From: Delftia acidovorans NBRC 14950
Lineage (GTDB): Bacteria; Pseudomonadota; Gammaproteobacteria; Burkholderiales; Burkholderiaceae_C
Length of the DNA: 32,000 nt
Assembly: GCF_001598795.1 (NCBI RefSeq)
Contig: NZ_BCZP01000012.1
Coordinates: 150,001 to 182,000, forward strand
Direction of reading: 5' to 3'
The notes under the pieces: model-generated
Seen by the model: the letters and a program-made list of their open reading frames with translations, nothing else
The model's database searches: none
Told to the model about the DNA's origin: nothing
Program-made: the position numbers and the translations under genes
In this document: positions 7,308 to 22,999 of the stretch, one piece after another
Position numbering within the stretch: the stretch's first letter is position 1
How the letters are laid out: each line of letters opens with the position of its first letter

Positions 7308-7317
7308 GGAGAGGGTG

Positions 7318-8445: not shown

Positions 8446-10205
8446 AGCACCTGCAACAGGAACAGTCAATGCCAGCCCCGGGCCTGAACCGCAGGGCGCT
8501 GCTGCAATGGGGCGCCTTGCTGACGGCGGGCGCCGTGCTGCCCGGCTGCGGCGGTGGAGGCGGGCCGCGCGACGATCTGCCCGAGCCGCAGGCGCTGCGC
8601 TCCGTCAACGGCGTGCTGGAGCTGCACCTGAACGTGGGCTATGCGTCCATGGACATGGACCTGCCGGACAGCGACATCGCGCGCTGGGCCCGCTATCCGG
8701 CCGATCGGCAGCCCGGGCGGCGTCTGGAGCTGCGCAGCTTCAATGGGCGATACACGGCGCCCACGCTGTGGCTGCGCCCCGGCGACACGCTGAAGATGTG
8801 GGTGCACAACCAGCTGCCGGCCTCGCCCCAGGGCTCGGACTGGGCGCTGCTCAACCACCAGAACAGCACCAACATGCATTTCCACGGCCTGCACGTGGAC
8901 CCGCGCGAGATACGGCCCGGCGTGTTTGGCGACTACGTGGTGGACGGGCCGGATGCCGGCATCGCGCCAGGCGCCACGCGCTACCACGAGATCCATCTGC
9001 CAGACGACCACAGTTGCGGCATCTACTGGTACCACCCGCATCTGCACGGCGCCACCAATGCCCAGGTCTCCAGCGGCATGTTCGGCGCCATCATCGTGGC
9101 CGATGCGCAGGACCCGTTCCGTGCCAGCGTGAACATGCGCGAGCGCGTGCTGTTCGCCCACAAGCTCACCGTCAATGCCAAGGGCCGCACCGATACGCTG
9201 GAAGACTCGATGCAGAATCCGGCCGGCGCCTTTTTGCTCAACGGCGCCTACCAGCCCACCATCGTGATGCGGCCCGGCGAGGTGCAGCATTGGCACATCG
9301 TCAATCCTTCGTCGTTCTACCCGCTGCATCCCGTGCTGGACGGGCATGTGATGAATGTCTATGGCCGCGACGGCAACCATTACGGCGGTATCTACCGGCC
9401 GCTGAGCCGGCAGACGGCCGGGCAGCCGCTGGACATGCGCGACTGGCCCGGCAACTACATCTACCCGGGCGGGCGCCTGTCCATGGTGGTGCAGGCATCG
9501 ATGGCGCCGGGCGAGTATTTCCTGCGCGCGGCCGCGTGCCCGTCCTTTCACCGGCCAAGCGGCAACGAGCCCTTTGAGGAGGTGCTGGCCCGGGTGGTGG
9601 TGCAGGGCGAGCCCGTGCAGGCCCGCGTGCCCGACCCGGCCCTGCTGCGCCGGCCCGGCGACTACACGCCCATCACCGATGCCGAACTGGCCAGCCATGG
9701 TGGCGTGCAGCGCGTCCTGCGCCTGGCCGTGCTGGCCGACGACGAGGACAAGGGCGTGCGCGACCCGGCCCTGGCGCCCATGCCGGCCGGCGAGAGCTGG
9801 GTGCTGAAGGTGGGCGGCAACCGATCGGTGTTTGCGGTGGGCACCGAGGCCATGCCGCTGGGCATGTCGCCCATCCATTCCAGCCTCACGCCTGTGCAGA
9901 CCGTGCCCTTCAATGCGGTGGAGGAGTGGACGATCTACAACTACAACGGCTACCCGCATCCCTTTCACATCCACGTCAACGATTGCTATGTGGTCAGGGT
10001 CAACGGCGCTCCGGTGACGCCCTTCTGGGCCGACACCCTGCCCGTGCCGCCGGGCACGGGCAGCAGCGGAGCGGCTGGGGTCACCAAGGGCAGCATCACC
10101 TTTCGCATGCGGTTTGCGGATTTCCACGGCAAGTTCGTCTGGCATTGCCATGCGCTGGACCATGAGGACCTGGGAATGATGCAGATCGTGGATGTGCGGC
10201 CCTGA
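8442..10205 (+). CDS. Three-domain multicopper oxidase with a twin-arginine signal and lipobox
   Basis: All four copper-ligand motifs are present: HFHGLH, WYHPHLHG, HPFHIHV and HCHALDHEDLGMM. The N-terminus NRRALLQWGALLTAGAVLPGCGGGG gives a Tat motif plus LPGC lipobox. AAGGAGG lies 4 nt before GTG 8442, which overlaps the RCC1 stop (GTGA). An alternative ATG is at 8469. Confidence 0.9.
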   Translation: MKHLQQEQSMPAPGLNRRALLQWGALLTAGAVLPGCGGGGGPRDDLPEPQALRSVNGVLELHLNVGYASMDMDLPDSDIARWARYPADRQPGRRLELRSFNGRYTAPTLWLRPGDTLKMWVHNQLPASPQGSDWALLNHQNSTNMHFHGLHVDPREIRPGVFGDYVVDGPDAGIAPGATRYHEIHLPDDHSCGIYWYHPHLHGATNAQVSSGMFGAIIVADAQDPFRASVNMRERVLFAHKLTVNAKGRTDTLEDSMQNPAGAFLLNGAYQPTIVMRPGEVQHWHIVNPSSFYPLHPVLDGHVMNVYGRDGNHYGGIYRPLSRQTAGQPLDMRDWPGNYIYPGGRLSMVVQASMAPGEYFLRAAACPSFHRPSGNEPFEEVLARVVVQGEPVQARVPDPALLRRPGDYTPITDAELASHGGVQRVLRLAVLADDEDKGVRDPALAPMPAGESWVLKVGGNRSVFAVGTEAMPLGMSPIHSSLTPVQTVPFNAVEEWTIYNYNGYPHPFHIHVNDCYVVRVNGAPVTPFWADTLPVPPGTGSSGAAGVTKGSITFRMRFADFHGKFVWHCHALDHEDLGMMQIVDVRP

Positions 10206-10278
10206 AAGCCGGGCTTGTCCTATCGGCCATTCCCGTGCCCTTCCGGCTTCATGCTGCAAGCCCTTGAATTCATTGGCC

Positions 10279-10298
10279 TGCAAGAAATGCTTGCATTT
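10279..10298 (+). terminator. Weak stem-loop plus TTT downstream of the multicopper oxidase gene
   Basis: TGCAAG AAATG CTTGCA followed by TTTG. A second GC hairpin GGGCCG-TGAG-CGGCCC at 10305-10320 lacks a U-tract. Confidence 0.3.
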
Positions 10299-10384
10299 GC
10301 GGGCGGGCCGTGAGCGGCCCGGCCCGAATCGCGTGTGGCACACTTGGCCGCTTTCCGGATTCCACGCCACGGGGCGCCTCTCGA

Positions 10385-12745
10385 ATGCAAAAAATCATTG
10401 GCCAAATCGCCGCAGAACTGAATGTCAAGCCGCAGCAAGTGGGTGCTGCGGTCGAATTGCTTGATGGCGGAGCCACGGTTCCGTTCGTCGCCCGCTACCG
10501 CAAGGAAGTGACCGGCGGCCTGGACGACGCGCAATTGCGCCAGCTCGACGAACGCCTGGGCTATCTGCGCGAGCTGGAAGACCGCCGGGGTACGGTGCTC
10601 AAGGCCATCGACGAGCAGGGCAAGCTGACCGATGCGCTGCGCCTGGCCATTGCCAATGCGCCGACCAAGCAGGAGCTGGAGGACATCTACCTGCCCTTCA
10701 AGCAAAAGCGCCGCACCAAGGGCCAGATTGCCAAGGAATTCGGCATCGAGCCGCTGGCCGACAAGCTGTTTGCCGACCCCACGCTGGACCCGCACAAGGA
10801 GGCCGAGGCCTTCTGCAAGCCCGCCACCACCCTGGACGACGGCAAGCCGGGTCCCGATTTCTCCACCACCTTCGCCGTGCTCGATGGCGTGCGCGACATC
10901 CTGTCCGAGCGCTGGGCCGAAGACCCGGCGCTGGTGCAGAAGCTGCGCGAATGGCTGTGGGAAGACGGCCTGCTGCGCTCCAAGAAGATCGAGGCCAAGA
11001 ACGAGAACGACCCCGAGGTCGCCAAGTTCCGCGACTATTTCGAGTACGACGAACCGATTGGCCGCGTGCCCTCGCACCGCGCCCTGGCCGTGTTCCGCGG
11101 CCGCGCGCTGGAGATCCTCGAAGCCAAGCTGGTTCTTCCCGTGGAGCCCGAGCCCGGCCAGCCCAGCCTGGCCGAAGGCAAGATCGCCCTGCACCTGGGC
11201 TGGAGCCACGCCAAGCGCGCCAGCGACGACCTGATCCGCAAGTGCGTGGCCTGGACCTGGCGCGTCAAGCTGAGCCTGTCCACCGAGCGCGACCTGTTCT
11301 CGCGCCTGCGCGAAGACGCCGAGAAGGTGGCCATCAAGGTCTTTGGCGACAACCTGCGCGACCTGCTGCTGGCCGCGCCTGCGGGCCAGCGCGCCGTCAT
11401 CGGCCTGGACCCGGGCATCCGCACGGGTGTCAAGGTGGCCGTGGTGGACAGCACGGGCAAGCTGGTGGACACCACCACCATCTACCCGCATGAGCCGCGC
11501 CGCGACTGGGACGGCTCCCTGGCCGTGCTGGCCCGCCTGGTCGAAAAGCACCAGATCAACCTGATTGCCATCGGCAACGGCACGGCCAGCCGCGAGACGG
11601 ACAAGCTGGCGGCCGACCTGATCAAGATCGCCAGCAAGGCCGACCGCCAGATCGAGAAGGTCGTGGTCAGCGAGGCCGGCGCTTCCGTGTATTCCGCCAG
11701 CGAGTTCGCCTCGCAGGAAATGCCCGACGTGGACGTGAGCCTGCGCGGCGCCGCCAGCATTGCGCGCCGCCTGCAGGACCCGCTGGCCGAGCTGGTCAAG
11801 ATCGACCCCAAGAGCATTGGCGTGGGCCAGTACCAGCACGACGTGAACCAAAGCGAGCTGGCGCGCCAGCTCGACGCCGTGGTCGAGGACTGCGTGAACT
11901 CCGTGGGCGTGGACCTGAACACGGCCTCAGCGCCGCTGCTGTCGCGCGTCTCGGGCCTGTCGGGCAGCGTGGCCAAGTCGGTGGTGCGCTGGCGCGATGC
12001 CAACGGCTCCTTCAAGAGCCGCAAGCAGCTGATGGACGTGGCTGGCCTGGGCGCCAAGACCTTCGAGCAGGCCGCCGGCTTTCTGCGTATCCGCGGCGGC
12101 GACAACCCGCTGGACATGACGGGCGTGCACCCGGAAACCTATCCCGTGGTCGAACGCATCATTGCCACCACGGGCAAGAGCGTGGACCAGCTCATGGGCC
12201 GCTCCGAGGTGCTCAAGGGCCTGAAGGCCGAGCAGTTCGTGAACGAGCAGTTCGGCGCCATCACCATCAAGGACATCCTGGGCGAGCTGGAAAAGCCCGG
12301 CCGCGATCCGCGCCCGGACTTCGTCGTCGCCCGCTTCAATGACGGCGTGGAAGACATCAAGGACCTCAAGGAAGGCATGACGCTGGAGGGCACGGTCAGC
12401 AACGTGGCCCAGTTCGGCGCCTTCGTGGACCTGGGTGTGCACCAGGATGGCCTGGTCCACGTCAGCCAGATGAGCCACAAGTTCATCGAGGACGCGCGTG
12501 AGGTCGTCAAGACCGGCCAGATCGTCAAGGTCAAGGTGCTGGAGGTCGATGTGGCGCGCAAGCGCATCAGCCTGACCATGAAGCTGGATGCGGCGCCCGC
12601 GCGGCGCGACGGCCCCCGTGACAACCGCTTCGAGAGCGCAGGCCGGGGCAGCCAGGGCCATCAGGGCGGCCAGCGCCGCGCGCCCGAGCCGGCGCAGCAG
12701 TCGGCCATGGCCTCGGCCTTCGCCAAGCTGCAGACCCGCAAGTAA
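10385..12745 (+). CDS. tex: Transcription accessory protein Tex (S1 RNA-binding domain protein)
   Basis: The N-terminus is the conserved Tex start (MQKIIGQIAAELNVKPQQVGAAVELLDGGATVPFVARYRKE). A YqgF/RuvC-like segment (GLDPGIRTGVKVAVVD) and a C-terminal S1 domain (GTVSNVAQFGAFVDLGVHQDGLVHVSQ) are present. About 786 aa. Confidence 0.95.
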   Translation: MQKIIGQIAAELNVKPQQVGAAVELLDGGATVPFVARYRKEVTGGLDDAQLRQLDERLGYLRELEDRRGTVLKAIDEQGKLTDALRLAIANAPTKQELEDIYLPFKQKRRTKGQIAKEFGIEPLADKLFADPTLDPHKEAEAFCKPATTLDDGKPGPDFSTTFAVLDGVRDILSERWAEDPALVQKLREWLWEDGLLRSKKIEAKNENDPEVAKFRDYFEYDEPIGRVPSHRALAVFRGRALEILEAKLVLPVEPEPGQPSLAEGKIALHLGWSHAKRASDDLIRKCVAWTWRVKLSLSTERDLFSRLREDAEKVAIKVFGDNLRDLLLAAPAGQRAVIGLDPGIRTGVKVAVVDSTGKLVDTTTIYPHEPRRDWDGSLAVLARLVEKHQINLIAIGNGTASRETDKLAADLIKIASKADRQIEKVVVSEAGASVYSASEFASQEMPDVDVSLRGAASIARRLQDPLAELVKIDPKSIGVGQYQHDVNQSELARQLDAVVEDCVNSVGVDLNTASAPLLSRVSGLSGSVAKSVVRWRDANGSFKSRKQLMDVAGLGAKTFEQAAGFLRIRGGDNPLDMTGVHPETYPVVERIIATTGKSVDQLMGRSEVLKGLKAEQFVNEQFGAITIKDILGELEKPGRDPRPDFVVARFNDGVEDIKDLKEGMTLEGTVSNVAQFGAFVDLGVHQDGLVHVSQMSHKFIEDAREVVKTGQIVKVKVLEVDVARKRISLTMKLDAAPARRDGPRDNRFESAGRGSQGHQGGQRRAPEPAQQSAMASAFAKLQTRK

Positions 12746-12773
12746 GGCCGGGCAGGGCAAGGCAGGAAACGCG

Positions 12774-13613
12774 ATGGCTGCGCACGCACTGGATCTGCAG
12801 ACGCTGTTGACCCAGACGCTGGCCCTGCCGGCGCAGCCGCGCATTGTTGCGCTGCTGCTGCGCGAGCTGGTGCCCGAGCAGCCCAGCCTGCGCCGGCTGA
12901 GCCAGCTGTTCGCGGCCGATCCCGCGCTGGCTGCCGGGCTGTTGGCGCAGGCCAACGGCCCGGTCTTCGGCATGGCGGGCCGTGTCACCGGCATTCCGGA
13001 GGCGCTGGCCCTGCTGGCGCCCGCGCAGTTGCGCCAGATCGTGCGGGGCATGCCGCTGGGCGTGGGCACGCATGCCGTGCCGGGCGTGGCCATGCCGGCC
13101 TTCTGGCGCTACAGCGTGGATGCCGCACGCGTGGCCCGCGCGCTGGCCGGCACGGTGCAGGCCAGCCCCACGGCGGCCTATGCGGCAGGCCTGCTGCACG
13201 GGCTGGGCGAGCTGGCCATGCACATGATCGATCCCGGCCGCGCGGCCACCATCTCCGAGCTGGTCGGCCCGCTGGACCCGCGCCGTGCCGAACTGGAGAT
13301 GCGGCTGTGCGGCTACGCATACAGCCATGTCAGCGCAGGCCTGGCCCGGCGCTGGAATCTTCCGCCGCTGCTGGCCGACGCGCTGCAGCACCTGCACACG
13401 CCGCTGGCCCAGCCCGGCTTCGATCCCCTGGCCTGCGTGCTGCACATCGCCGCCTGGCGCGCCCGATCGCGCGAGGCGCAATGGGGCGAGCGCGCGCTGG
13501 CCGTGAGCTTTCCCGGCGAAGTGGGGGTGGCCCTGGGCCTGGACATCGACATGGTGCTGCGCCAGGACCCGGTGGACTGGATGGCCGACACGGGCCTGGA
13601 TGTGCTGCTTTAG
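12774..13613 (+). CDS. HDOD domain signalling protein
   Basis: ATG at 12774, 28 nt after tex. HDOD-like features are present (LPAQPRIVALLLRE..., GLLHGLGELAMH). The N-terminal part of listed ORF 12588..13613 overlaps tex and was discarded. Confidence 0.75.
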   Translation: MAAHALDLQTLLTQTLALPAQPRIVALLLRELVPEQPSLRRLSQLFAADPALAAGLLAQANGPVFGMAGRVTGIPEALALLAPAQLRQIVRGMPLGVGTHAVPGVAMPAFWRYSVDAARVARALAGTVQASPTAAYAAGLLHGLGELAMHMIDPGRAATISELVGPLDPRRAELEMRLCGYAYSHVSAGLARRWNLPPLLADALQHLHTPLAQPGFDPLACVLHIAAWRARSREAQWGERALAVSFPGEVGVALGLDIDMVLRQDPVDWMADTGLDVLL

Positions 13614-13633
13614 GGCAGGACCCAGGGCCTGCG

Positions 13634-14899
13634 TCAGTTCCGGTGCCAGGGCGCCGGCACCATGTCGAAAAGCGGCGTGGGGTCGCGCCGGTAGGGCGCA
13701 GGGCTGATGGGCGCCATGGGCTGCATGGTCATGGGGTCGATGCGTGCCAGCTGCTGCATCCAGCCAATGTCCACACCGCCGCCCTGTGCGGGGCGCGAAT
13801 AGATCAACTCCAGCATGCGCCGCGATGCCACATGGCCGTGGGACGCCGCCTGCTGGTACAGGCGCAGGGCCTCGGTGTAGTTGGCCGGCACGCCTTCGCC
13901 ACGGTGATAGCGCTGGGCCTGCTCCCACTGCTGCTGGGCCGTGACGGGCTGGCGCACCTGGATGTCCTGCTCGCTGGGCGAGCCCCGCAACTCCGGCGTG
14001 CGCTGCAGCCGTTGCGGCCCCTGCGCCGCAGGCGGGGCAGACGTGCCCTGGGCCGACACGAGCTGGCCCGCGGGCCGCATGCGGTCGCCCAGCATCTGTG
14101 CATTGGTCGCCGCGCTGGATGAGCGTGGCGCCGCCGCGCGGAACTGGCGCAGGGCGGCCTCGGGCTCGTCCTGCGCGAGCAGGGCCAGGCCCCATTCCAG
14201 CTGGGCGCCGGGGCTGCCCGAACGCGCCGCGCGCTGCAGCAGTTCCTGGTCGGGCGTGCCTGCCACGGTCAAGGCCTCGCCCACGGGCTCGGCCGTGGAC
14301 AGCGGCGCCAGGCGCCGTGCCAGCAGCCATTCCAGGTATTGCGCACGGGCCGGGTCGGTCTTGGCCAGCTGGGCGATCCAGGGCCTTGCGGCCGGTGGAT
14401 CGGGGGGCTGGCCGCAGCCGTCCATGGCGCACCAGGCCAGTCCCGCGCTGGCCAGCGGATGGCCGGCGCGCTGGGCACGCTCGAACCAGTTCCTGGCCTG
14501 TGGCCCGTCCTGGGCCATGGCAATGCCATGCAGTGCCAGCAGGCCCATGACCCATTGCGCCTCGCGCTGCGTGGCTGGGCTCACGCCCTTGCCTTCGGCG
14601 CGGCTGCGCAGTTGGGACAGGGCCCGTTGCTGGGCGGTATCCGAGGTCGAATTGATGTTGCTGGTGCCCGGCTGGGAGCCGTACACGCTGGCCGTCGCCA
14701 CCCGGATGGGCATGACCGGCGTGAAGCGGGCTGCCGCCTGCACATGCGGCAGCACGGCGGGCGCCAGACCGGGCAGCACCACCAGCAGCCCGGGCAGCAC
14801 AAGCCTGGCGGTCAGGCGCAGCCCGCGGCGCCGCCGCGGCGAGGTTTCATGAGCGCTGGAGGGCATGGCAGGTGCCTCTGGTTGGCTTGTGGTCCGCAC
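13634..14899 (-). CDS. Secreted Sel1-like (TPR-type) repeat protein
   Basis: Signal-like N-terminus (RRRRGLRLTARLVLPGLLVVLPGLAPAVLPHVQAAA). Several Sel1-type units are present, e.g. QWEQAQRYHRGEGVPANYTEALRLYQQAASHGHVASRRMLELIY. The start is GTG 14899, 6 nt after the upstream stop, or ATG 14866 with an AGAGG 8 nt upstream. Confidence 0.75.
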   Translation of the reverse strand: MRTTSQPEAPAMPSSAHETSPRRRRGLRLTARLVLPGLLVVLPGLAPAVLPHVQAAARFTPVMPIRVATASVYGSQPGTSNINSTSDTAQQRALSQLRSRAEGKGVSPATQREAQWVMGLLALHGIAMAQDGPQARNWFERAQRAGHPLASAGLAWCAMDGCGQPPDPPAARPWIAQLAKTDPARAQYLEWLLARRLAPLSTAEPVGEALTVAGTPDQELLQRAARSGSPGAQLEWGLALLAQDEPEAALRQFRAAAPRSSSAATNAQMLGDRMRPAGQLVSAQGTSAPPAAQGPQRLQRTPELRGSPSEQDIQVRQPVTAQQQWEQAQRYHRGEGVPANYTEALRLYQQAASHGHVASRRMLELIYSRPAQGGGVDIGWMQQLARIDPMTMQPMAPISPAPYRRDPTPLFDMVPAPWHRN

Positions 14900-14905
14900 C
14901 GTGCA

Positions 14906-16543
14906 TCAGCGCTTGGCCTGGGCCGGCACCACCTGCCAGAAGCGGGCCGAGCCGGTGTACCCATCTGCGCCCAGCGAGCTGGCCATGTACTGGTTGACAT
15001 CCTCCAGGGAGCGCATGCCCGGGATGGCGATGAAGGCCTTGCCCTGCAGCAGGGTGGGCAGCTTGTCGGTCATGTTCTGCTCGGTAGCGAAGCAGGCCAC
15101 GCCTTCCTTGCCGGGAGGGCCGGCGTTGATCACATAGCCGGGGTTGGGGCTCATCCAGTCGGGCAGGCGCACGGACTGGGCGGCGGTGATCCAGCCCGAG
15201 CGGTTCACGTCGTTGGGCACCAGCCGGGTGACCTCGCCATCGGCGCCCGCCATGAAGCACGACAGGTAGGAGGCACGCGACACGGTGGTGGACAGGAAGA
15301 GCTGCTCACCCGTCTCGAAGGAGGTGCGGGTGGGCGTGATGTTCTCCACCCACAGGTCCAGCTTGCGGTCGGGCGCGGGGGCGCCGTAGCGGTAGTCGCC
15401 CGTGCCCACGGCCACGTTCTCGGAGGCGGTGGTGACCGGCGCTGCGCTCTTGGTGTTCCAGCCAATGCGCGTGATGTGCCCATCGGCGCCCACGGCCACG
15501 AAGTCGCGCAGTGCGCGTTCGTAGGTGTTGAAGTCCACCACGCCGCTGACCACCATGCCGCTGTCGGCCTGGAAGCGCCCTATGGCCTCGCGCCACTGCG
15601 GGTTGCCTGCGGTGAAGGCCGGGGCGTCCGGCGGCAGATAGCCCTTGCTGATCAGCGACTGGCGCACCAGTTCCTGGTGGATGCCGGCTTCGCCTTCTTC
15701 GTACCAGTCGCGCAGCTGGCGCTGGAAGTCGGGGTGGGTCTGGTCCAGCGTCAGGCACTGCCAGTAGGGCAGGCGCGACCATTTGCCCAGCAGCTCGATC
15801 ATGCCCAGCTCGACCAGGGTGCGCACGGCCGGGCCCGAGCCCTGGGCATAGTCGCGGCCCACGCTGAACTGCACGCCGTAGGTGCCGATGCGGCCGGACA
15901 GGTCCAGCCCCTGGCTGCCGTTGCCGATGACGACCTCGTTGGCCGAATCCAGGCCCGGGATGATGGTGCGCGTGCGGAAGTCGCCCAGGTGCAGCTCCAT
16001 GCCCAGCACGGCGCCGCTGCGGTTGGCGCTGTAGCCGGTTTCCAGGCGCGAGGCGCTGGTGCCTATGTCCACGTTGTTGCGCAGCACGTTCTGGTCCATG
16101 AAGGACACGGCGCCCGACACATACAGGGCAGGGCGCTGCAGCTGGATCTGGTTGTTGTTGAGCAAGATGGTGGTGAGGTTCTGCACCGTATCCTGGCGGG
16201 CGATGTCCACCTCATAGTCCACGTAGCGGAAGGCACTGCTGACGCGCGACATCTGGGACAGGGCGGTGACCACCATCTCCTTGGCGGCCACGGCCACGCG
16301 GCCCGAGTAGTCGGGCAGCTGCTTGCTGGTGATCAGCACCGTGGGCATGTGGCTGTTGCGGAACATCCTGTCCATGCACATCAGCGAGTCGGAAAAGCTC
16401 GATATCGAGCGCACCGGCCGCACCACGGGGCGGTCGGCCGCATAGACCTTGTCAAGGTACTTGGCGTCCTTGCGCGCATCCAGCGGCGCGCAGCCCGACA
16501 GCAGCACGATGGAGGCCGAGACGGCGCAGGCAATGGCCCGCAT
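14906..16543 (-). CDS. Outer-membrane lipoprotein with three parts: CsgG/HfaB-like secretion-channel domain, peptidoglycan-binding (PG_binding_1-like) domain and DUF4384-like domain
   Basis: ATG 16543 gives MRAIACAVSASIVLLSGC (lipobox, Ala at +2). Residues ~45-265 align by eye with E. coli CsgG blocks (AVAAKEMVVTALSQ vs SATAMLVTALKD; ALYVSGAVSFMDQNV vs NIMVEGSIIGYESNV; GPAVRTLVELGMIELL vs EPVMLCLMSAIETGVIFLI). Residues ~286-345 fit the PG-binding pattern (LVRQSLISKGYL...WREAIGRFQADSGMVVSGVVDFNTYERAL). Residues ~395-490 resemble DUF4384 (LWVENITPTRTSFETGEQLFLSTTVSRASYLSCFMAGADGEVTRLVPND). Confidence 0.8.
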   Translation of the reverse strand: MRAIACAVSASIVLLSGCAPLDARKDAKYLDKVYAADRPVVRPVRSISSFSDSLMCMDRMFRNSHMPTVLITSKQLPDYSGRVAVAAKEMVVTALSQMSRVSSAFRYVDYEVDIARQDTVQNLTTILLNNNQIQLQRPALYVSGAVSFMDQNVLRNNVDIGTSASRLETGYSANRSGAVLGMELHLGDFRTRTIIPGLDSANEVVIGNGSQGLDLSGRIGTYGVQFSVGRDYAQGSGPAVRTLVELGMIELLGKWSRLPYWQCLTLDQTHPDFQRQLRDWYEEGEAGIHQELVRQSLISKGYLPPDAPAFTAGNPQWREAIGRFQADSGMVVSGVVDFNTYERALRDFVAVGADGHITRIGWNTKSAAPVTTASENVAVGTGDYRYGAPAPDRKLDLWVENITPTRTSFETGEQLFLSTTVSRASYLSCFMAGADGEVTRLVPNDVNRSGWITAAQSVRLPDWMSPNPGYVINAGPPGKEGVACFATEQNMTDKLPTLLQGKAFIAIPGMRSLEDVNQYMASSLGADGYTGSARFWQVVPAQAKR

Positions 16544-16750
16544 GCAACCCTGTCTGCCGGACCATCGCTGGCGGAAAGTCCCACGGTCGTCCGCATGGCC
16601 GCCGAGTGCCGGCTGCAGCGCGGCATCGGGGCGGGGAAGTCCTGGCGATGGAAGGCGGTTGCGCATGATGGACCTCTGCTGGAAAACGGCGAGCCAGGGC
16701 ACAGGCGCGCACGGGCGTCGGCGCCGGAAATGGGGGGATCGATAAATGGT

Positions 16751-16774
16751 GGGCGGCCCGAAGGCTGGCCGCCC
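16751..16774 (-). terminator. GC-rich hairpin 9 nt after the 140-aa gene stop (possible terminator or attenuator splitting the locus into two units)
   Basis: GGGCGGCC (16751-16758) pairs with GGCCGCCC (16767-16774) around an 8-nt loop. On the minus strand it is followed by ACCATTTATCGAT, a weak U-tract. It sits in a 240-nt gap before the lipoprotein gene. Confidence 0.45.
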
Positions 16775-16783
16775 TGTGTCGCG

Positions 16784-17206
16784 CTAGCGGCAGACGTTGA
16801 CCAGGTCGCCCTTGAGGACCACGATCTGGTCCTTGGTCTGGGGCCCATAGCGGTTGAATGCGCTGGCGTTGGTGTTGCTGGCCAGGTCCTGGGTGCAGGT
16901 GCGCTGCATGCCCGTGCTGCTCGTCGTGGTCGTGGTCACCACGTTCGCTTCGGTGGAGATACCGGGCGCATTGGTCATGGACATGGCTTCGTAGCGCGCG
17001 ATCTTGGCCTTGACATTGATGGGGATGTCGGTGACGGTGTCCAGCCCCGACGATGTCGGCTGCTTGGCCGTGGGCAGCCTGAGGTAGTCGACGGGCTTGT
17101 TCAGCACCACCGGGTCTTCGCCGGGGGCCGCTGCATGAAGGGGGGTCGCTCCGAGGGCGAGCCAGGCCAATAGGGTAGCCGAACAGAGATGGGCGGCGGT
17201 GTGCAT
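16784..17206 (-). CDS. Secreted 140-aa protein carrying one C-terminal copy of the fibre-subunit repeat; candidate nucleator or adaptor
   Basis: AGGAG lies 7 nt upstream of ATG 17206. Signal peptide MHTAAHLCSATLLAWLALGATPLHA|AAPG. There is a Thr/Ser-rich linker. The C-terminal QDLASNTNASAFNRYGPQTKDQIVVLKGDLVNVCR aligns with NNLASNYGEVDVKSTSIQVVAAKNSGIIN of the neighbouring repeat protein. No known family was recognised. Confidence 0.7.
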   Translation of the reverse strand: MHTAAHLCSATLLAWLALGATPLHAAAPGEDPVVLNKPVDYLRLPTAKQPTSSGLDTVTDIPINVKAKIARYEAMSMTNAPGISTEANVVTTTTTSSTGMQRTCTQDLASNTNASAFNRYGPQTKDQIVVLKGDLVNVCR

Positions 17207-17255
17207 GGTGGGCTCTCCTGGTGCGGTGAGCTGGGTCTTCGCCGGGAAGGTGCCG

Positions 17256-17278
17256 CCGGGTGGCCTGGGGCCGCCCGG
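17256..17278 (-). other. GC-rich intercistronic hairpin between the repeat-protein gene and the 140-aa gene
   Basis: CCGGGTGGCC TGG GGCCGCCCGG on the plus strand. On the minus-strand mRNA there is one C/A mismatch and no U-tract. Confidence 0.35.
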
Positions 17279-17304
17279 CAGTTTCCTTCGTCCGGCAGCC
17301 AGGC

Positions 17305-17790
17305 TCAGTGGTTGTTGTAGCAGGTCACGCAGCCGTTGTTGCTGGAGATGTTCTGCACTGCCGTGGAACCGTTGCCGGCGTAGTTGATGATGCCGGAGTT
17401 CTTGGCAGCCACCACCTGGATCGAAGTGCTCTTCACGTCCACTTCGCCATAGTTGGAGGCCAGGTTGTTGACGGCCACTGCGCTATAGCCATCGGCCTTG
17501 TTCAGGATGCCGCTGCCGGTGGCTGCGACGACTTGCAGCGAGCTGCCACTGCGATCGATGGTCACGTTGCCTGCATTGCTGGCCAGGTTCTGGGAGGCCT
17601 TGCCACCACCCGTTGCCACGTTCAGCACGCCGCTCCTGTTCAGCAGGGTGACCTGAACGCTGGGGCCATTGATTTCGATCTGGGAGCTGCTGCTGCCGCC
17701 GCCGCCACCGCCGCCACCGCCACCACCCATGGGGCCTGCCATGGCAGCTGTTGCGATCAAGCTCAGGGAAAGAATTGCAAGCGATTTCAT
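17305..17790 (-). CDS. Secreted 161-aa poly-Gly / triple-repeat protein; candidate curlin-like beta-solenoid fibre subunit
   Basis: AGGAG lies 4 nt upstream of ATG 17790. Signal peptide MKSLAILSLSLIATAAMA. This is followed by GPM-G11-SSSS and then three imperfect ~37-40-aa repeats (QV.(L/A)...SG(V/I)(L/I)N.A......A..N(L/I)(A/S)SN.G.V). The C-terminus is GCVTCYNNH. The listed ORF 17305..17940 was trimmed to the signal-peptide start. Confidence 0.8.
   Translation of the reverse strand: MKSLAILSLSLIATAAMAGPMGGGGGGGGGGGSSSSQIEINGPSVQVTLLNRSGVLNVATGGGKASQNLASNAGNVTIDRSGSSLQVVAATGSGILNKADGYSAVAVNNLASNYGEVDVKSTSIQVVAAKNSGIINYAGNGSTAVQNISSNNGCVTCYNNH
17695..17727 (-). repeat. (GGN)11 trinucleotide tract encoding the Gly11 run of the repeat protein
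   Basis: The plus strand reads gcc gcc gcc gcc acc gcc gcc acc gcc acc acc, flanked by four Ser codons. Confidence 0.9.
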
Positions 17791-18328
17791 GATGGCTCCT
17801 TGATGAAGAATCGGACTATCAGGAAGAGGTGTGTAAGCACCCGTTTTGCAGACACTTTGCGGAGGTTTCCGGCTTTGTCTCCCTGGACCCCTGCTCGTTG
17901 TCTGGACTCCAATGTGCTCGGGGAGATCCGTCCATTCCATCTCTTGTCCGGGGTAGCCATGAGCGCTGATCCACTTGCCGGGTACTTACCCACCCAAGCC
18001 GTTTGCAGGCAGGCTGCATCGCGTTAAAGCGGCAGCCGTGCGCAATGAATGGATCTGGGTAGTTTCAAGGTGTAACGACAGAAAATTTACGGTTGCAGCT
18101 TTGCTTGGGGTCGCCGTCTCGGCGGGTGCGGGGGCTTTTGGGCAACCTGGTGTATCGAAGTGCACGCACCTGAGGCCGGCGACCGCAACAAAGGCGGGAT
18201 CGGCCTTTGTCACAGGGCGGGATTGAAGGCGCGGTGCGCGGTGTCTGGATCCGCAAGATCTGCCGGACCGGCGCTCAGGAAACTCCGTAGTCGATTCCTC
18301 ACACAAAGGTGTTAATTTGTAATCTACG

Positions 18329-18357
18329 CAATCTTTCACAAACTTCGTCAAAGATTG
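18329..18357. promoter_or_regulatory. Inverted repeat CAATCTTT-N13-AAAGATTG (candidate operator)
   Basis: Perfect 8-bp arms at 18329-18336 and 18350-18357, in the AT-rich patch ~90 nt upstream of the response regulator start. Confidence 0.4.
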
Positions 18358-18362
18358 TGGAT

Positions 18363-18413
18363 ATCGGTTGCGATTTCTCTTAATGTGGAAAGGCAAGTCT
18401 GTGATCGGTTGCG
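18363..18413. promoter_or_regulatory. Direct repeat ATCGGTTGCG x2, spaced 41 bp start to start (candidate regulator binding sites)
   Basis: Identical 10-mers at 18363-18372 and 18404-18413, upstream of the response regulator RBS. Confidence 0.35.
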
Positions 18414-18447
18414 TCATACACATGGCGTGACATTTGAGGAGAGCAGC

Positions 18448-19227
18448 ATGAATCCATCCGACGTTCCCGCCGATGCCCGTCCCCTGATCGCCGAGTCCCC
18501 TCGCGCCCAGGGCATGCTGGGCACAGGGCTGAGTTCTGCCATGTGGCCTGACTACCTGGCGGGCCAGCCCGACAAGCCCGTGCGGGTGCTGCTGGTGGAC
18601 GACGATGCCCATATCCGCATGGTCATTGCGCAGGAAATCATGAACGACCCGCGCACCCTGGTCGTGGCCCAGGCCGGCAGCGTGCGCGACGGGCGCAAGG
18701 CCATCCGCCAGCATGAATTCGACGTGATGCTGGTGGACCTGAACCTGGGTGACGGCGAGGGCTTCGAGCTGCTGGACATGATGAAGACCGTGCGGCCCAC
18801 GGCCGAGGCCGTCATCATCTCCGTGATGGAAAACGACGAACAGGTGCTGCGCGCCTTCGAGCTGGGCGCCACGGGCTACCTCGTCAAGAACTCCTGGTTC
18901 GGCAACTATCCGCAGGCCGTGCTGCAGGTGGCCAATGGCGGCGCATCCGTCACCCCCAGCCTGGCGCGCAGGTTGCTGCAGCGCTTCGACAAGACCCAGG
19001 GCGCCGAGCCCAAGCGCCGCACGCCCGACGAGGCAGACCGCCTGTCCACCCGCGAGCGCGAGGTGCTGCGCATGGTCGCCAGCGGCTATACCAGCGCCGA
19101 GATCGGCTCGCGCCTGATGATCAGCGCCATGACGGTCAACACGCACATCAAGAACATCTACCGCAAGCTGCAGGTGCGCACACGCGCCCAGGCGGTACGC
19201 TTTGCATCGCTGCGCGGCCTGTTCTGA
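18448..19227 (+). CDS. Two-component response regulator, NarL/FixJ (LuxR-type HTH) family
   Basis: GAGGA lies 7 nt upstream of ATG 18448. The receiver has canonical residues (LLVDDD, MLVDLNLGDG, IISV, GYLVK). The C-terminal LuxR HTH is LSTREREVLRMVASGYTSAEIGSRLMISAMTVNTHIKNIYRKLQV. About 45 aa precede the receiver. Confidence 0.9.
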   Translation: MNPSDVPADARPLIAESPRAQGMLGTGLSSAMWPDYLAGQPDKPVRVLLVDDDAHIRMVIAQEIMNDPRTLVVAQAGSVRDGRKAIRQHEFDVMLVDLNLGDGEGFELLDMMKTVRPTAEAVIISVMENDEQVLRAFELGATGYLVKNSWFGNYPQAVLQVANGGASVTPSLARRLLQRFDKTQGAEPKRRTPDEADRLSTREREVLRMVASGYTSAEIGSRLMISAMTVNTHIKNIYRKLQVRTRAQAVRFASLRGLF

Positions 19228-19302
19228 TCCTGGGGCGGCGTCCTGCCCGCAGCGGCCTGCCGCCGCCCGGGCCATGGCGGCCGCGCCTGGCACGGCTTGG
19301 CC

Positions 19303-20226
19303 ATGAAAGATCCCCTTCGCACGCTGGCCATCTGCCTGGCCCTGGGCCTGCTGCAGATGCTGGGCCTGTGCGCCTGGCTCTGGCAGGCGGGCGCCCAGGC
19401 CCCGCCGTGGCTGAGCCTGGCCAGCCTGGCGCTGCTGGTATCCACGGCGCTGCTGTGCGCCATGGGCGCCCGGCGACTGCACAGGCTGCTGCTGTGGCGG
19501 CGCCGGCGCAGTCCCCGGCCCTCGCGCGAAGTGCAGGCCGAGCGCCGGCGCATTGCCGCCGACCTGCATGACGGCGTGGGCGGGCTGCTGGTGCATGCCA
19601 TGGCCTTGCTGGACCCGCGCGAGACCCGCCAGCGCCAGGCGCAGGAATTGCTGGAGCAGGGCTTGCTGGACCTGCGGCTCATGGTGGATGCCATGGACGC
19701 CATGGAAGACGCCTTGCCCGTGCGGCTGGCGCGCCTGCGCCACCGGCTGCAGCCCGTGCTGGACCGGCGCGGCATGCGCATCTGCTGGAGCGTGGCCGAT
19801 CCGCATGCCGCCGCCGGGCTGCGCGGGGTGCCGGACCTGCCAGTCTTGCAAGACCTGCCAGACCTGCCGCGTGGCCAGCCGTCCCAGCAGTTGCTGGCCA
19901 TCGCCCAGGAGGCCGTGAGCAATGCGCTGCAGCATGCGCGCGCCACCACGCTGTGGCTGGTGCTGGAGCCGGTGGATCGTGCAGATGCTGCAAGCCCTGG
20001 CCGCGATGCCCGGCGTGCATTGCACTGGGAACTGCGCGTGGAAGATGACGGCTGCGGCCTGCCGTCCGACCCTGGCCCTGGCCCTGGCCCTGCGCAGGGT
20101 GCCATCCCGCCTGGCCTGCAGGGCATGGGCCTGGCAGGCATGCATCGCCGCGCCCATGCCATCGGGGCTGTGCTGGACATCCTGCCGCGGGCCGGTGGGG
20201 GTACCGTGGTGCGTGTGCGCTGGTGA
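19303..20226 (+). CDS. Sensor histidine kinase, HisKA_3/NarX-DesK type, two TM helices and almost no periplasmic loop
   Basis: H-box ERRRIAADLHDGVGG, N-box EAVSNALQHA, G1 VEDDGCGL and G2 GMGLAGMHRRA. Two N-terminal hydrophobic helices are separated by ~9 residues. The start is ATG 19303; the track starts at TTG 19297. Confidence 0.85.
   Translation: MKDPLRTLAICLALGLLQMLGLCAWLWQAGAQAPPWLSLASLALLVSTALLCAMGARRLHRLLLWRRRRSPRPSREVQAERRRIAADLHDGVGGLLVHAMALLDPRETRQRQAQELLEQGLLDLRLMVDAMDAMEDALPVRLARLRHRLQPVLDRRGMRICWSVADPHAAAGLRGVPDLPVLQDLPDLPRGQPSQQLLAIAQEAVSNALQHARATTLWLVLEPVDRADAASPGRDARRALHWELRVEDDGCGLPSDPGPGPGPAQGAIPPGLQGMGLAGMHRRAHAIGAVLDILPRAGGGTVVRVRW
20071..20092 (+). repeat. (CCTGGC) hexanucleotide tandem repeat (~3.5 units) encoding PGPGPGP between the kinase G1 and G2 boxes
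   Basis: Read directly: cctggccctggccctggccctg, inside the histidine kinase CDS. Confidence 0.8.
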
Positions 20227-20371
20227 TCGGGCCGATGCGCCGGCGGCAACGGCGTTCCGGCAATTGCGGTGCCCGCTGACAGGGCAGGCCCGCGGCGCGC
20301 TGTGCAATCCCCCGATATGCGGATGTGAGGCAGTATCCATACCTGCATCCAAGCCCTGACATCCCGTTTCC

Positions 20372-22999
20372 ATGAACCCACATTCCGACCCTGCGCCGTC
20401 GCCTTCACGGCAGGCCCTTCCTGCCGCCGCCGAAGGCGGCAATGCGGCCAATGCAGCCGCGAATTCCGCTACCCATGCCGCCACCCATGCCGATTTCGCG
20501 CGCAGCGTGCGTTCGGCCCTGCCGGGCCTGGCACAGCTGGCCGACATGGTGCCCGCGCTGCGCCTGCTCACCGGGCTGCTGGTGGCCAGCATCGTCATCG
20601 CCGGCCTGTATTTCGGCCAGGGCCTGCTGATTCCGCTGGCGCTGGCGCTGTTGTTCGGTTTTTTGCTGGATCCGGCCGTCTCCCGGCTCAAGCGCTGGGG
20701 CATGCCGCGCATGGCGGCCACGCTGCTGGTGGTGGTCATGGCGCTGGCGACGCTGGCGGGAATGGGTACCTATCTGGGCAGCCAGGTGCAGCAGCTCAGC
20801 GCCGATCTGCCCACCTACCAGAACACCATCCGCGACAAGCTGCGCAGCCTGCGCAGGAACGCCAACATGCCCAGTGCCTGGGACGGCGCGCTGCGCACCT
20901 ATGACACCGTGGAACGCGAGATATCGCGCGGCGCCACCACGCCCCGCGTGCAGAAGGTGGAGATCCAGTCGCCAGAGCAAAAGCCCACGGCGCGCATGCT
21001 GCAGTGGCTGGGCCGCGTGGCCGAGCCCGTGACCATGGCCGGCATCGTGCTGCTGTTCGTGATCCTCATCCTGCTGGACCGCGATGACCTGCGCGACCGG
21101 CTGCTGCGCCTGATGGGCGGCAACCTGCACGTGGCCACCGACGCGCTGGACGAGGCCTCGCAGCGCATAGGCAAGTACCTGCGCATGCAGTTCGTCGTCA
21201 ACATCACCTACGGACTGCCCATGGCGGCGGGGCTGTGGTTCATTGGCGTGCCGGGCGCCATTCTCTGGGGCGTGCTGGCGGCCATCATGCGTTTCGTGCC
21301 ATATGTGGGGGCCATGATCTCGGCCGCCTTCCCGCTGGCGCTGGCCTTTGCCGTGGACCCGGGCTGGCAGATGCTGCTGATGACGCTGGGCCTGATCATG
21401 GCGCTGGAGCTGATCAGCAACAACCTCATCGAGCCCTGGCTGTATGGCAGCAGCACGGGCCTGTCCACGCTGTCCATCATCGTGTCGGCCACCTTCTGGA
21501 CGGCGCTGTGGGGGCCGATAGGGCTGATCCTGTCCACGCCGCTCACGGTCTGCCTGCTGGTGCTGGGGCGCTACATCCCGGCGCTGCAATTCATGGAAGT
21601 GCTGCTGGGCAGCTCGCCCGTGCTGGGGCCGGCCCAGCGCCTGTACCAGCGCCTGCTGGCCGACGACGTGGAAGACGCGGTCACGCTGGCGCATGAACTG
21701 GTGGACGCAAGGCTGCCGGCGCGCGCCTCGGCGGACGAACGCTCGGCCGCAGTGGCCGGTTTCTATGACGAGGTGGCCATCCCCGCACTGCGCCTGGCCA
21801 CGCAGCAGCACCTGGAATCGGCCACGGCCGAACACCGGCTGCGCCTGTCCAGCGGCATGGATGCCCTGATCGAGGAACTGCGCGAAAGCCATCCGCCGCC
21901 CGCTTCGGCCCTGGCCACACGCGCCCTGCGCATCCATTGCGTGGGCGCGCGCTGGGAGGTCGATGCCCTGGCCGCCGCCATGGTGGCGCACAGCGAGGCG
22001 CTGCGCGGCCACGTGGTCAGCTGCTCGGACTGGGCCCTGGCCGCCGACCCGCAATGGCGCCAGCTGGGACCGGGGCAGGGCGGCCTGCCGCAAGGCCACG
22101 CAGGAGCGCAGGCCCTGGCCGAGGCGCAATTGCTGGTGCTGTCCGTCTTCAGCACCCAGCCCCAGACCGTGGTGCGCCAACTGATGCGCCGCGTGCGCCG
22201 CCATTGGCCGCACCTGCGCGTGGTGCTGGCGCTGTGGAATGCGCCGGCCGTGGTGTCCGACCCCGAGTTCGCGCGCCGCTGCGGCGCCGCCGCCTGCGTG
22301 TCCGGCCTGCGCGAGCTGCAGTTGTGGGTGGACGCCTTGCGCCTGCCTGACGCGGCAGGCCAGGGCCTGGCCGCGCCCATTCCCGATGACGATGAGCAGC
22401 GCGTGCGCCAACTGCACGACAGCGGCGTGCTCGGGCCCGGCCTGCCGCCGCTGTACCACGAGGCAGCCCAGCAGGCCGCCAATGCCTTCGATGTGAAATG
22501 GGCCCAGGTCTCATGGGTCGATGCCGACCGCGTGCACACGCCCGGCAGCCTGCTGGTGGCGGACCAGGGCGACCCGGCTTCCGCCGGCATGCCGCGTGCG
22601 CAGTCCATCTGCTCCTACGTGGTCCATGGCGGTGACGCCCTGGTGGTGCATGACGCCGCGCGCGACCCCCGATTTGCCGGCAACCCCGCGTTGCAGGCGA
22701 TGCGGCTGCGCTTTTACGCGGGCGTGCCGCTCAAGAACCGCCACGGCACGGTGCTGGGCAGCTTTTGCATCATGGACGACGCGCCGCGCGAGGTCTCGGC
22801 GGCAGATCTGGAGCTGCTGGGCGTCATGGCCGAGCAGTTGATGCAGAACGTGGAGGTGCGCCGGATGATGGAAGCTGGCGCTGCACCGGCTCCGGTGCAG
22901 ACTTCGGCACAAACTCCGGCGCAAGTGGCATCCCAAACGACACCCCAGCCACCATCGTCGTCACCATCGACAACACCCCAACCGAGTGCTGGCGGCTGA
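20372..22999 (+). CDS. AI-2E family (PerM/UPF0118) permease fused to a long cytoplasmic region ending in a GAF domain
   Basis: The N-terminal ~400 aa are multi-TM with AI-2E-like blocks (LLIPLALALLFGFLLDP...RLKRWGMPR; LIEPWLYGSSTGLSTLSIIVSATFWTALWGPIGLILSTPLT). The C-terminal GAF-like segment is SICSYVVHGGDALVVHDAARDPRFAGNP...LRFYAGVPLKNRHGTVLGSFCIMD. The tail is rich in Pro, Ser, Thr and Gln. Confidence 0.8.
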   Translation: MNPHSDPAPSPSRQALPAAAEGGNAANAAANSATHAATHADFARSVRSALPGLAQLADMVPALRLLTGLLVASIVIAGLYFGQGLLIPLALALLFGFLLDPAVSRLKRWGMPRMAATLLVVVMALATLAGMGTYLGSQVQQLSADLPTYQNTIRDKLRSLRRNANMPSAWDGALRTYDTVEREISRGATTPRVQKVEIQSPEQKPTARMLQWLGRVAEPVTMAGIVLLFVILILLDRDDLRDRLLRLMGGNLHVATDALDEASQRIGKYLRMQFVVNITYGLPMAAGLWFIGVPGAILWGVLAAIMRFVPYVGAMISAAFPLALAFAVDPGWQMLLMTLGLIMALELISNNLIEPWLYGSSTGLSTLSIIVSATFWTALWGPIGLILSTPLTVCLLVLGRYIPALQFMEVLLGSSPVLGPAQRLYQRLLADDVEDAVTLAHELVDARLPARASADERSAAVAGFYDEVAIPALRLATQQHLESATAEHRLRLSSGMDALIEELRESHPPPASALATRALRIHCVGARWEVDALAAAMVAHSEALRGHVVSCSDWALAADPQWRQLGPGQGGLPQGHAGAQALAEAQLLVLSVFSTQPQTVVRQLMRRVRRHWPHLRVVLALWNAPAVVSDPEFARRCGAAACVSGLRELQLWVDALRLPDAAGQGLAAPIPDDDEQRVRQLHDSGVLGPGLPPLYHEAAQQAANAFDVKWAQVSWVDADRVHTPGSLLVADQGDPASAGMPRAQSICSYVVHGGDALVVHDAARDPRFAGNPALQAMRLRFYAGVPLKNRHGTVLGSFCIMDDAPREVSAADLELLGVMAEQLMQNVEVRRMMEAGAAPAPVQTSAQTPAQVASQTTPQPPSSSPSTTPQPSAGG

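Follow-up and report, generated by a model that had tools for sequence, protein, structure and literature searches.

The window analysed here, a 32,000-nucleotide stretch of the Delftia acidovorans NBRC 14950 genome (NCBI RefSeq assembly GCF_001598795.1, contig NZ_BCZP01000012.1, positions 150,001 to 182,000 of the forward strand), encodes a small secreted repeat protein, here called rep161, as the first of four co-directional genes. The genes that follow it encode a second secreted protein (sec140), a candidate outer-membrane lipoprotein (lipo598) and a Sel1-repeat protein. We find that rep161 belongs to a family without a name in the databases that we searched and without mention in the literature that we searched. 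We put at about even odds (roughly 0.5) the reading that it serves as the main structural subunit of a Comamonadaceae surface fiber or anchor system not described before, built on the logic of curli and of the Hfa holdfast anchor. The gene and its parts are listed below in window positions, with lengths in amino acids (aa).

17305-17790, minus strand: rep161 gene, 161-aa repeat subunit, stop codon included (open reading frame and sequence)
17737-17790, minus strand: Sec signal peptide, aa 1-18 (MKSLAILSLSLIATAAMA), putative cleavage after A-M-A (direct reading, conserved in the family)
17683-17736, minus strand: low-complexity linker, aa 19-36 (GPM-G11-S4), encoded by (GGY)11(AGC)3TCC (sequence reading)
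17662-17682, minus strand: partial unit, aa 37-43 (QIEINGP), predicted extra N-terminal strand (AlphaFold2 strand 37-40)
17545-17661, minus strand: repeat 1, aa 44-82, predicted strands 43-51, 54-60, 64-69 and 75-78 (family alignment, AlphaFold2)
17428-17544, minus strand: repeat 2, aa 83-121, predicted strands 83-91, 94-100, 105-110 and 117-119 (family alignment, AlphaFold2)
17320-17427, minus strand: repeat 3, aa 122-157, closing with the conserved NNG-C154-V-T-C157 (family alignment)

The rep161 gene runs on the minus strand from an ATG at 17790 to a TGA at 17305-17307, with a strong Shine-Dalgarno sequence (AAGGAG) 5 bases upstream of the ATG. A mechanical list of open reading frames had stretched this frame to 211 aa from an upstream ATG. 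All rep161 homologues begin at MKSLAIL or MKKLAI, and 161 aa is therefore the correct product; the 211-aa version is ruled out. Direct reading of the N-terminus finds the features of Sec export, all kept in the family: K2, the hydrophobic core LAILSLSLIATAA and the small-x-small site A-M-A. Cleavage after A-M-A would leave a mature protein starting with GP. From end to end, the precursor consists of the signal peptide, GPM-G11-S4, QIEINGP, three units of ~39 aa and a tail reading NNGCVTCYNNH. A first-pass annotation, made from the sequence alone, had described a 161-aa secreted protein with a signal peptide, a Gly11-Ser4 stretch, three repeats and a Cys-x-x-Cys tail, and the open reading frame and direct reading bear out every detail. 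The presumed cleavage site, AMA, has the A-x-A form typical of Sec signal peptides and is conserved across the family. Two other classes of protein were considered and ruled out. There is no transmembrane segment or basic tail past the CxxC, which excludes a C-terminal sorting signal of the PEP-CTERM, GlyGly-CTERM or type IX secretion system kind, and the Sec signal peptide together with the conserved 150-aa folded repeat protein excludes a precursor of a ribosomally synthesized and post-translationally modified peptide.

Cut at the coordinates of the first-pass annotation, the three units of rep161 give pairwise BLOSUM62 local scores of 58-70, against 24 ± 4.8 for shuffled units (z 7.0-9.6), and 0/2000 shuffles attain the observed score, which upholds the claim of three imperfect ~39-aa repeats. 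The division of each repeat into two conserved halves likewise holds family-wide. Across 141 units from 47 proteins, half A has the consensus S-x-Q(98%)-x3-[LA]-x2-S-x-[VI]-x-N(81%)-x-A(87%)-x-G and half B the consensus A(95%)-x-Q(85%)-N(95%)-[LIV]-[AS]-S(87%)-N(98%)-x-G(74%)-x-V-x-[IV]. We also considered halves A and B as diverged copies of one ~20-aa unit and rejected this, since hhalign detects no profile similarity between them (score 5.9 vs. a null of 6.4 ± 1.7). The segment SQIEINGPSV ahead of repeat 1, previously taken for a partial unit, is consistent with that description in having a predicted extra strand, QIEI, at residues 37-40, and I40 is invariant in the family alignment (A1). 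The two C-terminal cysteines, which had been singled out as a feature that CsgA lacks, prove to be a family trait: C154 is present in every one of the 47 aligned three-repeat members, and C157 in at least 90% of them. A second CxxC lies 1-5 residues ahead of the first strand in 17/49 full-length members, or about a third of the three-repeat members (P0007, P0010, P0147, P0156, P0179, P0182, P0195, P0199, P0202, P0204, P0206, P0207, P0212, P0214, P0216 and P0225, and the protein encoded at 6906-7274 of locus L007).

Between the signal peptide and the first strand lies the most variable part of the family. In rep161 this segment holds Gly11 (residues 22-32) and Ser4 (residues 33-36), and the tract is coded by a (GGY)n(AGC)n trinucleotide run. 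Within Delftia the tract reads G11S4 in the window, G5S4 in a D. acidovorans locus (L001, 6934-7398) and G16S4 in D. tsuruhatensis NBRC 16741 (L002, 6903-7400). Comamonas loci have a Gly-rich run (L003) or N11 (L004, 6682-7146), Hydrogenophaga has Gly-His repeats, and other members have His-, Pro- or Ser-rich or CxxC-containing segments. The tract is absent from P0001, a homologue 83% identical to rep161. The differences in tract length among close relatives look like slipped-strand variation of a surface-protein spacer. Since both length and composition vary and the tract is trinucleotide-encoded, we read it as a disordered spacer prone to slippage and not as a recognition sequence kept in the family like CsgA N22, and the same observations run counter to the earlier suggestion that Gly11 is an N22-like targeting signal.

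Scans with Pfam and NCBIfam assigned rep161 to no family, and across 47 family members they returned scattered noise only, with no consistent model. A word-indexed search of 5.8 billion proteins found 18 relatives, with 0 informative names among them, and when 1.84 billion cluster representatives were searched exhaustively with a profile, 175 clusters matched at E ≤ 1e-3, including 57 at E ≤ 1e-30. The majority of the family are 140-170 aa long with three units, and in all three-repeat members the C-terminal Cys sits at the last strand. A second subfamily of 236-509 aa has 5-8 units and five cysteines, with a C-x(4-6)-C-x(2-3)-C tail instead. Counts of the N-x-[AS]-S-N motif are three in most members and up to eight, in proteins of up to 509 aa, and such variation in repeat number is what one typically sees in fibrous or solenoid proteins, not in globular ones. 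The long subfamily (e.g., P0012-P0015 and P0139-P0144) thus has an odd number of cysteines, among them those of an internal C-x(4-6)-C loop, and ends in a Pro-rich tail. Another member, P0277 (352 aa), starts with two repeat-like units and continues in an unrelated stretch of ~250 aa with many Gly, Ala and charged residues.

By every sequence test that we ran, rep161 is not a curlin. Curlin_rpt (PF07012) has no match at E ≤ 1 in rep161 and matches 0/47 family members. In hhalign comparisons of the family with Escherichia coli CsgA, only the signal peptide and the Gly-rich head align (probability 0.3-26%), and nothing aligns with E. coli CsgB, CsgC, CsgE or CsgF; the positive control, CsgA vs. 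CsgB as single sequences, reaches only 65%, so the sensitivity of this comparison is limited. The observation that the repeat motif differs from the curlin consensus is thereby confirmed, and the profile comparisons found no match in the repeat region to CsgA or CsgB. At E ≤ 1, no NCBIfam holdfast model matches rep161, sec140 or any of the 47 family members. A search of PDB chains with the rep161 sequence returned Gly-linker artefacts only, and nothing relevant came out of literature searches on the sequence motifs or on functional amyloid in Delftia or Acidovorax.

Structure prediction with AlphaFold2 depended on alignment depth. An alignment of 13 sequences gave an unusable model, with a mean predicted local distance difference test score (pLDDT) of 45. 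With 47 sequences the model is all beta, with a mean pLDDT of 80.4 and a predicted template modeling score of 0.71, and ten-residue blocks over residues 41-150 reach pLDDT 88-97. Six predicted strand groups begin at residues 43, 64, 83, 105, 122 and 143 (mean spacing 20). Counted from each of these starts, Gln (once Asn) stands at +3, Gly at +10 or +11 and Val/Ile at +12 in 6/6 groups, and Asn stands at +8 in 4/6. The arrangement would look like stacked strand-turn-strand layers with Gln/Asn ladders, which is a reading of register and not a measured geometry. The PDB entries that Foldseek lists for the model are nearly all beta-helices or solenoids (SV2 luminal domain, ice-binding proteins, bactofilin, SufD and Ag43), none of them significant (all E > 0.08, template modeling [TM] score ~0.1); the CsgA fibril 8enq is at rank 7 (E 0.22, TM ~0.1). 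Foldseek against viral models gave nothing significant. The prediction suggests an all-beta repeat core as the fold class, with no specific structural relative established. The first-pass annotation had compared the repeats with the regular beta-strands of CsgA. A regular, periodic all-beta core is indeed predicted with 47 sequences, in two of five models with confidence; neither the CsgA fibril nor any other solved fold is matched significantly.

Downstream of rep161 lie a hairpin and the three remaining genes of the operon.

17234-17300, minus strand: GC-rich RNA hairpin between rep161 and sec140 (inverted repeat, 11 pairs, 10 of them G-C)
16784-17206, minus strand: sec140, 140-aa secreted protein (family alignment A4)
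14906-16702, minus strand: lipo598, 598-aa open reading frame, candidate outer-membrane lipoprotein (likely start Met54 at nucleotide 16543, lipobox LLSGC with Cys71)
15788-16507, minus strand: lipo598 HfaB/CsgG-like domain, aa 66-305 (NCBIfam HfaB, hhalign)
15518-15667, minus strand: lipo598 PG_binding_1 domain, aa 346-395 (Pfam)
15077-15319, minus strand: lipo598 DUF4384 domain, aa 462-542 (Pfam)
13634-14899, minus strand: 421-aa protein with Sel1 repeats and a hydrophobic segment near its N-terminus, encoded last in the operon (Pfam Sel1 E 3.4e-11, position kept in all loci)

The gene order is conserved. A histidine kinase and a response regulator, transcribed divergently, precede the order rep161, sec140, lipoprotein and Sel1 protein in Delftia, Comamonas, Hydrogenophaga and Acidovorax (Acidovorax facilis), and the module order recurs in a Burkholderiales metagenome-assembled genome, in another metagenome-assembled genome and in metagenome contigs, one of which encodes a five-unit subunit of 260 aa. 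The module is flanked by unrelated housekeeping genes (RND efflux, Tex, AI-2E transporter) that vary by genus, and these six genes are therefore self-contained. The RNA hairpin behind rep161 has a minimum free energy of -50.6 kcal/mol, against -36.6 ± 4.4 for shuffles, and a strong hairpin occupies the same intergenic position in 10/10 loci (the window, L001-L004, L006, L009, L011, L013 and L014). A U tract follows it in L004, L006 and L014, where it resembles an intrinsic terminator, and there is none in Delftia. Pilus-type operons make their major subunit in excess by placing a partial terminator or stabilizer behind the first gene.

The lipoprotein may supply a link to known export systems. 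Read from Met54, lipo598 begins with MRAIACAVSASIVLLSGC, which contains the lipobox, and Cys71 is invariant in 26 homologues; with Ala at +2, the E. coli rule would sort the protein to the outer membrane. Its identity to the D. acidovorans and D. tsuruhatensis homologues is 97-98%. Pfam finds nothing in aa 60-340, the region in which NCBIfam HfaB (NF037935) matches at E 7.9e-4 over profile positions 3-257 of 264. The same model is matched at E < 1 in 22/26 homologues (best E 5.4e-5). Against a CsgG-family profile of nine sequences (E. coli CsgG and eight "CsgG/HfaB family" genes from plasmids), the N-terminal domain of lipo598 scores 38 in hhalign (probability 54%, E 1.2e-4), compared with 15.3 ± 2.8 and a maximum of 27 for 100 column-shuffled controls; against single E. 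coli CsgG the match is weak. A literature search for DUF4384 with CsgG returned nothing relevant. On these profile comparisons lipo598 is likely, though unproven, to be a distant member of the CsgG/HfaB superfamily. A full-length lipo598 homologue with lipobox, HfaB-like, PG-binding and DUF4384 parts is also encoded within 5745-10942 of locus L012, on an Azospirillum ramasamyi plasmid (NZ_CP029832.1). The order there is an extracytoplasmic function sigma/anti-sigma pair, two His-rich DUF4399 proteins, the lipo598 homologue, an OmpA-family protein and a second DUF4384 protein, a set that may represent a different "cargo" for the same type of lipoprotein.

That HfaB, not CsgG proper, is the only family-level match of lipo598 brings in a holdfast-anchor-type complex as an alternative, in which short surface oligomers of rep161 and sec140 on lipo598 would tether exopolysaccharide or matrix, as HfaA, HfaD and HfaE do. 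Sel1/TPR proteins often partner polysaccharide export, and the peptidoglycan-binding domain of lipo598 would suit an anchor. Hfa proteins, moreover, make HfaB-dependent surface oligomers (PMC6707917; 10.1101/2022.07.20.500906). However, neither the module nor its flanks contain genes for making or exporting polysaccharide, no NCBIfam holdfast model besides HfaB matched any protein of the operon, and a first gene that the hairpin would boost, together with a variable number of repeats, speaks for a structural subunit made in bulk. We consider a pure anchor of this kind unlikely.

The 140-aa protein sec140 has no Pfam or NCBIfam family. After the signal peptide, all 19 homologues carry APGEDP at what is predicted to be the start of the mature protein, and C104 and C139 are also invariant in the family alignment (A4). 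The last ~50 residues follow the pattern TC-x-QD[LV][AG]SNT...DQIVVL-x-GDLVN-x-C, within a repeat-like region at aa 85-140. Aligned to the repeat profile with hhalign, this C-terminus scores 20.7 (probability 25%), compared with 9.0 ± 1.8 and a maximum of 15.6 for column shuffles, and its two invariant Cys occupy the invariant Ala positions of the repeats ("A-x-QN" and "N-x-A"). The alignment is suggestive of a minor subunit with a single repeat-like unit, which could be the counterpart of a nucleator or anchor. Comparison of sec140 with CsgB, CsgC, CsgE and CsgF showed no similarity.

Upstream of rep161, a long control region separates the operon from a divergent two-component system.

17791-18354, no strand assigned: divergent intergenic (control) region of ~560 bp, from rep161 to the response-regulator gene
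18355-19227, plus strand: NarL/LuxR-type response regulator (receiver and GerE helix-turn-helix), divergent (Pfam, conserved synteny)
19297-20226, plus strand: HisKA_3-type sensor histidine kinase (Pfam, conserved synteny)

A divergent spacing of ~570 bp is kept in the Acidovorax locus L009. A sigma-70 consensus scan found no match in the region upstream of rep161, and an Rfam scan of the window returned nothing. Over 65 aa, the response regulator and CsgD share 38% identity in their helix-turn-helix, a similarity at family level only. Such a regulator, divergent from the operon, could recall a highly diverged true curli locus with rep161 as CsgA and sec140 as CsgB, as could the Gly-rich head after the signal peptide, the Gln/Asn-rich repeats and the CsgG-superfamily candidate. 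This equation is already contradicted at the sequence level, and we give it next to no credence: Curlin_rpt is absent throughout the family, hhalign to CsgA and CsgB is void in the repeat region, CsgE, CsgF and CsgC were not found, the unit is 39 aa with unlike halves vs. ~22 aa, and the Gly head is not conserved.

Other genes of the window include ordinary neighbors unrelated to the module. An AcrB-type RND (resistance-nodulation-division) efflux pump of 1065 aa and an outer-membrane factor (OEP, 489 aa) lie at 880-5543 on the plus strand, and a Tex-like protein is encoded at 10310-12745, also on the plus strand. Directly after the histidine kinase gene, 20372-22999 (plus strand) encodes an 875-aa protein that joins an AI-2E family transporter domain (aa 68-396) to a C-terminal GAF domain (aa 694-825), an unusual transporter-sensor fusion. 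A 348-aa open reading frame beyond the Sel1 gene (12567-13613, minus strand) was considered as a module member and rejected; its Arg/Gly/Ala-rich translation looks like an off-frame artefact. Three open reading frames of 662-944 aa opposite real genes, at 14339-17173 (plus strand), 17986-20739 (minus strand) and 12567-14555 (minus strand), are likewise Arg/Gly/Ala-rich with no family matches and look like high-GC off-frame artefacts.

Because an HfaB/CsgG-like lipoprotein is encoded two genes downstream of rep161 in a conserved operon, export and assembly by a curli- or Hfa-like logic is the best reading of the locus. The analysis itself shows the sequence features, the family, the synteny, the weak homology of lipo598 and a predicted all-beta repeat core; from the reading we infer an export route, a mode of polymerization and roles for the accessory proteins and the cysteines. 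The Sec pathway would export the rep161 precursor, with removal of the signal peptide after A-M-A. Carrying its disordered low-complexity head, the mature protein would then cross the outer membrane via lipo598 or assemble on it, lipo598 combining an N-terminal domain of distant HfaB/CsgG kinship with a peptidoglycan-binding domain that would tie it to the cell wall. Outside the cell, the three 39-aa units may fold as stacked strand-turn-strand layers into a short, beta-solenoid-like rod with Gln/Asn in register, and the rods may stack end to end. The cysteines at the rod ends, C-terminal in every case and N-terminal as well in a third of relatives, would then lie at the interface between subunits, where disulfides or bridging metals could fasten it; such a latch is plausible because the rod ends are the faces that would meet in a head-to-tail polymer. 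With its one repeat-like C-terminal unit, sec140 might act as the minor subunit (nucleator or cell anchor), and the Sel1 protein as a periplasmic accessory. The hairpin behind rep161 would keep subunit output above that of the machinery, and the divergent LuxR-type two-component system would turn the operon on. A more specific version, in which the Comamonadaceae have a functional-amyloid or beta-solenoid system of their own, with a subunit fold unrelated to curlin, a lipoprotein derived from the HfaB/CsgG line and fused to cell-wall-binding and DUF4384 domains, and a covalently reinforced, amyloid-like fiber latched head to tail through terminal CxxC motifs, is a tentative proposal that is probably not right in all its parts.

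Several results weigh against reading rep161 as the subunit of such a system. Neither hhalign with sec140 nor the Pfam scan of the operon turned up a homologue of CsgE, CsgF, CsgC or CsgB. The HfaB score of lipo598 is 18.7 bits against a cut-off of 300; Pfam CsgG (PF03783) is never matched by lipo598, even by the isolated N-terminal domain at E ≤ 10; and sequence and profile searches find no match for lipo598 among PDB chains. The lipo598 homologue on Azospirillum plasmids adjoins unrelated DUF4399 proteins, with no rep-like genes, and the lipo598 family is therefore broader than its rep161 cargo. Since halves A and B are dissimilar, the picture of six ~20-residue layers rests on register only, and no solved structure superposes on the rep161 model at the Foldseek values given above. 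Only two of the five AlphaFold2 models come near 80, the remaining three being at 47-55 and the shallow 13-sequence run at 45, and AlphaFold2 yields confident yet unrealistic beta-solenoids for repeat sequences (PMC11795689). The last two points, taken furthest, would make rep161 a largely disordered low-complexity envelope protein and its beta-solenoid an artefact of repeat input. This we judge very improbable: the repeats are imperfect, their positions are strongly conserved over ~175 clusters (Q 98%, N 98%, A 95%), conserved alternating hydrophobics are a signature of folded repeats, and confidence grew with alignment depth and not with repeat perfection.

The pairing of a lipo598 homologue with different small proteins in Azospirillum, and the unproven channel nature of lipo598, also fit a secreted or periplasmic beta-helix that does not polymerize. 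Such a protein could be an adhesin, a coat or a binder of ligands, metals or ice, with the CxxC as a redox or metal site and lipo598 as a cell-wall partner instead of a channel. CxxC is a classic redox or metal motif, and the top fold-search entries include monomeric beta-helices (ice-binding proteins, SV2 luminal domain). Yet every fold match is insignificant, the repeat number ranges from 3 to at least 8, a repeat-like unit occurs in sec140 as well, Cys lie at both rod ends in a third of members, and a subunit-first operon with a hairpin resembles polymer systems. On balance we find a non-polymerizing protein an improbable account of the module, and we retain a polymerizing surface subunit as the working interpretation.

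Neither the subunit family nor the 140-aa family nor the complete module has a name in the databases that we searched, and our literature searches found no account of them. To our knowledge, only a handful of dedicated bacterial functional-amyloid or fiber systems are known, for example curli, Fap, TasA, chaplins and the Hfa anchor. Amyloid-like material without known genes is made by many biofilm bacteria of the environment, and water, sludge and plant-associated biofilms are common habitats of Delftia, Acidovorax, Comamonas and Hydrogenophaga. If our interpretation is true, rep161 would represent a new family of subunits and a candidate, open to testing, for such gene-less material, and lipo598 a second, domain-extended branch of HfaB/CsgG-type export. 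The module would also give a first functional context to DUF4384 and to the annotation "DUF4384 domain-containing protein," which is widespread in these genomes. As a compact scaffold with a variable repeat number and terminal cysteines, the subunit might be of interest for living-materials engineering.

Among known systems, the three-gene lipoprotein cluster of Acinetobacter baumannii is similar in having a CsgG/HfaB-family protein outside canonical curli, with an effect on the surface matrix (bioRxiv 10.1101/2021.05.19.444899). It differs in having two further lipoproteins, no repeat subunit and a clear Pfam-level relationship to CsgG, which lipo598 lacks (bioRxiv 10.1101/2021.05.19.444899). 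The Fap system of Pseudomonas shares with the module a secreted repeat subunit (an amyloid in Fap), a dedicated operon and a minor paralogous subunit, the last of these a suggestive likeness in the case of sec140. No Pfam match to any Fap family was found, the repeat motif differs, and the candidate export component is a lipoprotein here, whereas Fap has a trimeric barrel of the FapF type. FapC has a conserved C-terminal Cys motif.

Likeness to curli is more extensive. Both have a small Sec-dependent subunit with a flexible Gly-rich head and imperfect repeats rich in Gln, Asn, Gly and Ala, predicted in rep161 to form strand-turn-strand layers, and in both the locus encodes a second small protein, related in our case through the sec140 alignment, and an outer-membrane lipoprotein that, on weak evidence for lipo598, belongs to the CsgG/HfaB superfamily. 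A LuxR-type regulator is divergent across a long intergenic region in both. Unlike the curlin repeat of ~22 aa, however, the rep161 unit has 39 aa in two unlike halves and contains no curlin repeat, and a conserved CxxC ends rep161 and is missing from CsgA. Homologues of CsgE, CsgF and CsgC were not found in the module, a Sel1 protein is added, and lipo598 is about twice as long as its curli counterpart, adding PG_binding_1 and DUF4384. The regulator is a full two-component pair, and all module genes but the regulators lie in one operon with the subunit gene first.

The closest comparison for the lipoprotein is the Caulobacter holdfast anchor, in which HfaB is reported to be required to place HfaA, HfaD and HfaE on the cell surface, where they form multimers resistant to sodium dodecyl sulfate, and is thought to work like the CsgG channel (PMC6707917; bioRxiv 10.1101/2022.07.20.500906). 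The two systems differ in that rep161 and sec140 are similar to no NCBIfam holdfast model, the module is hosted by Comamonadaceae within the Betaproteobacteria, no holdfast polysaccharide genes lie near it, and lipo598 carries extra domains. They are alike in that HfaB is the best, if weak, family match of lipo598, and in both the small secreted proteins are encoded directly upstream of the lipoprotein gene.

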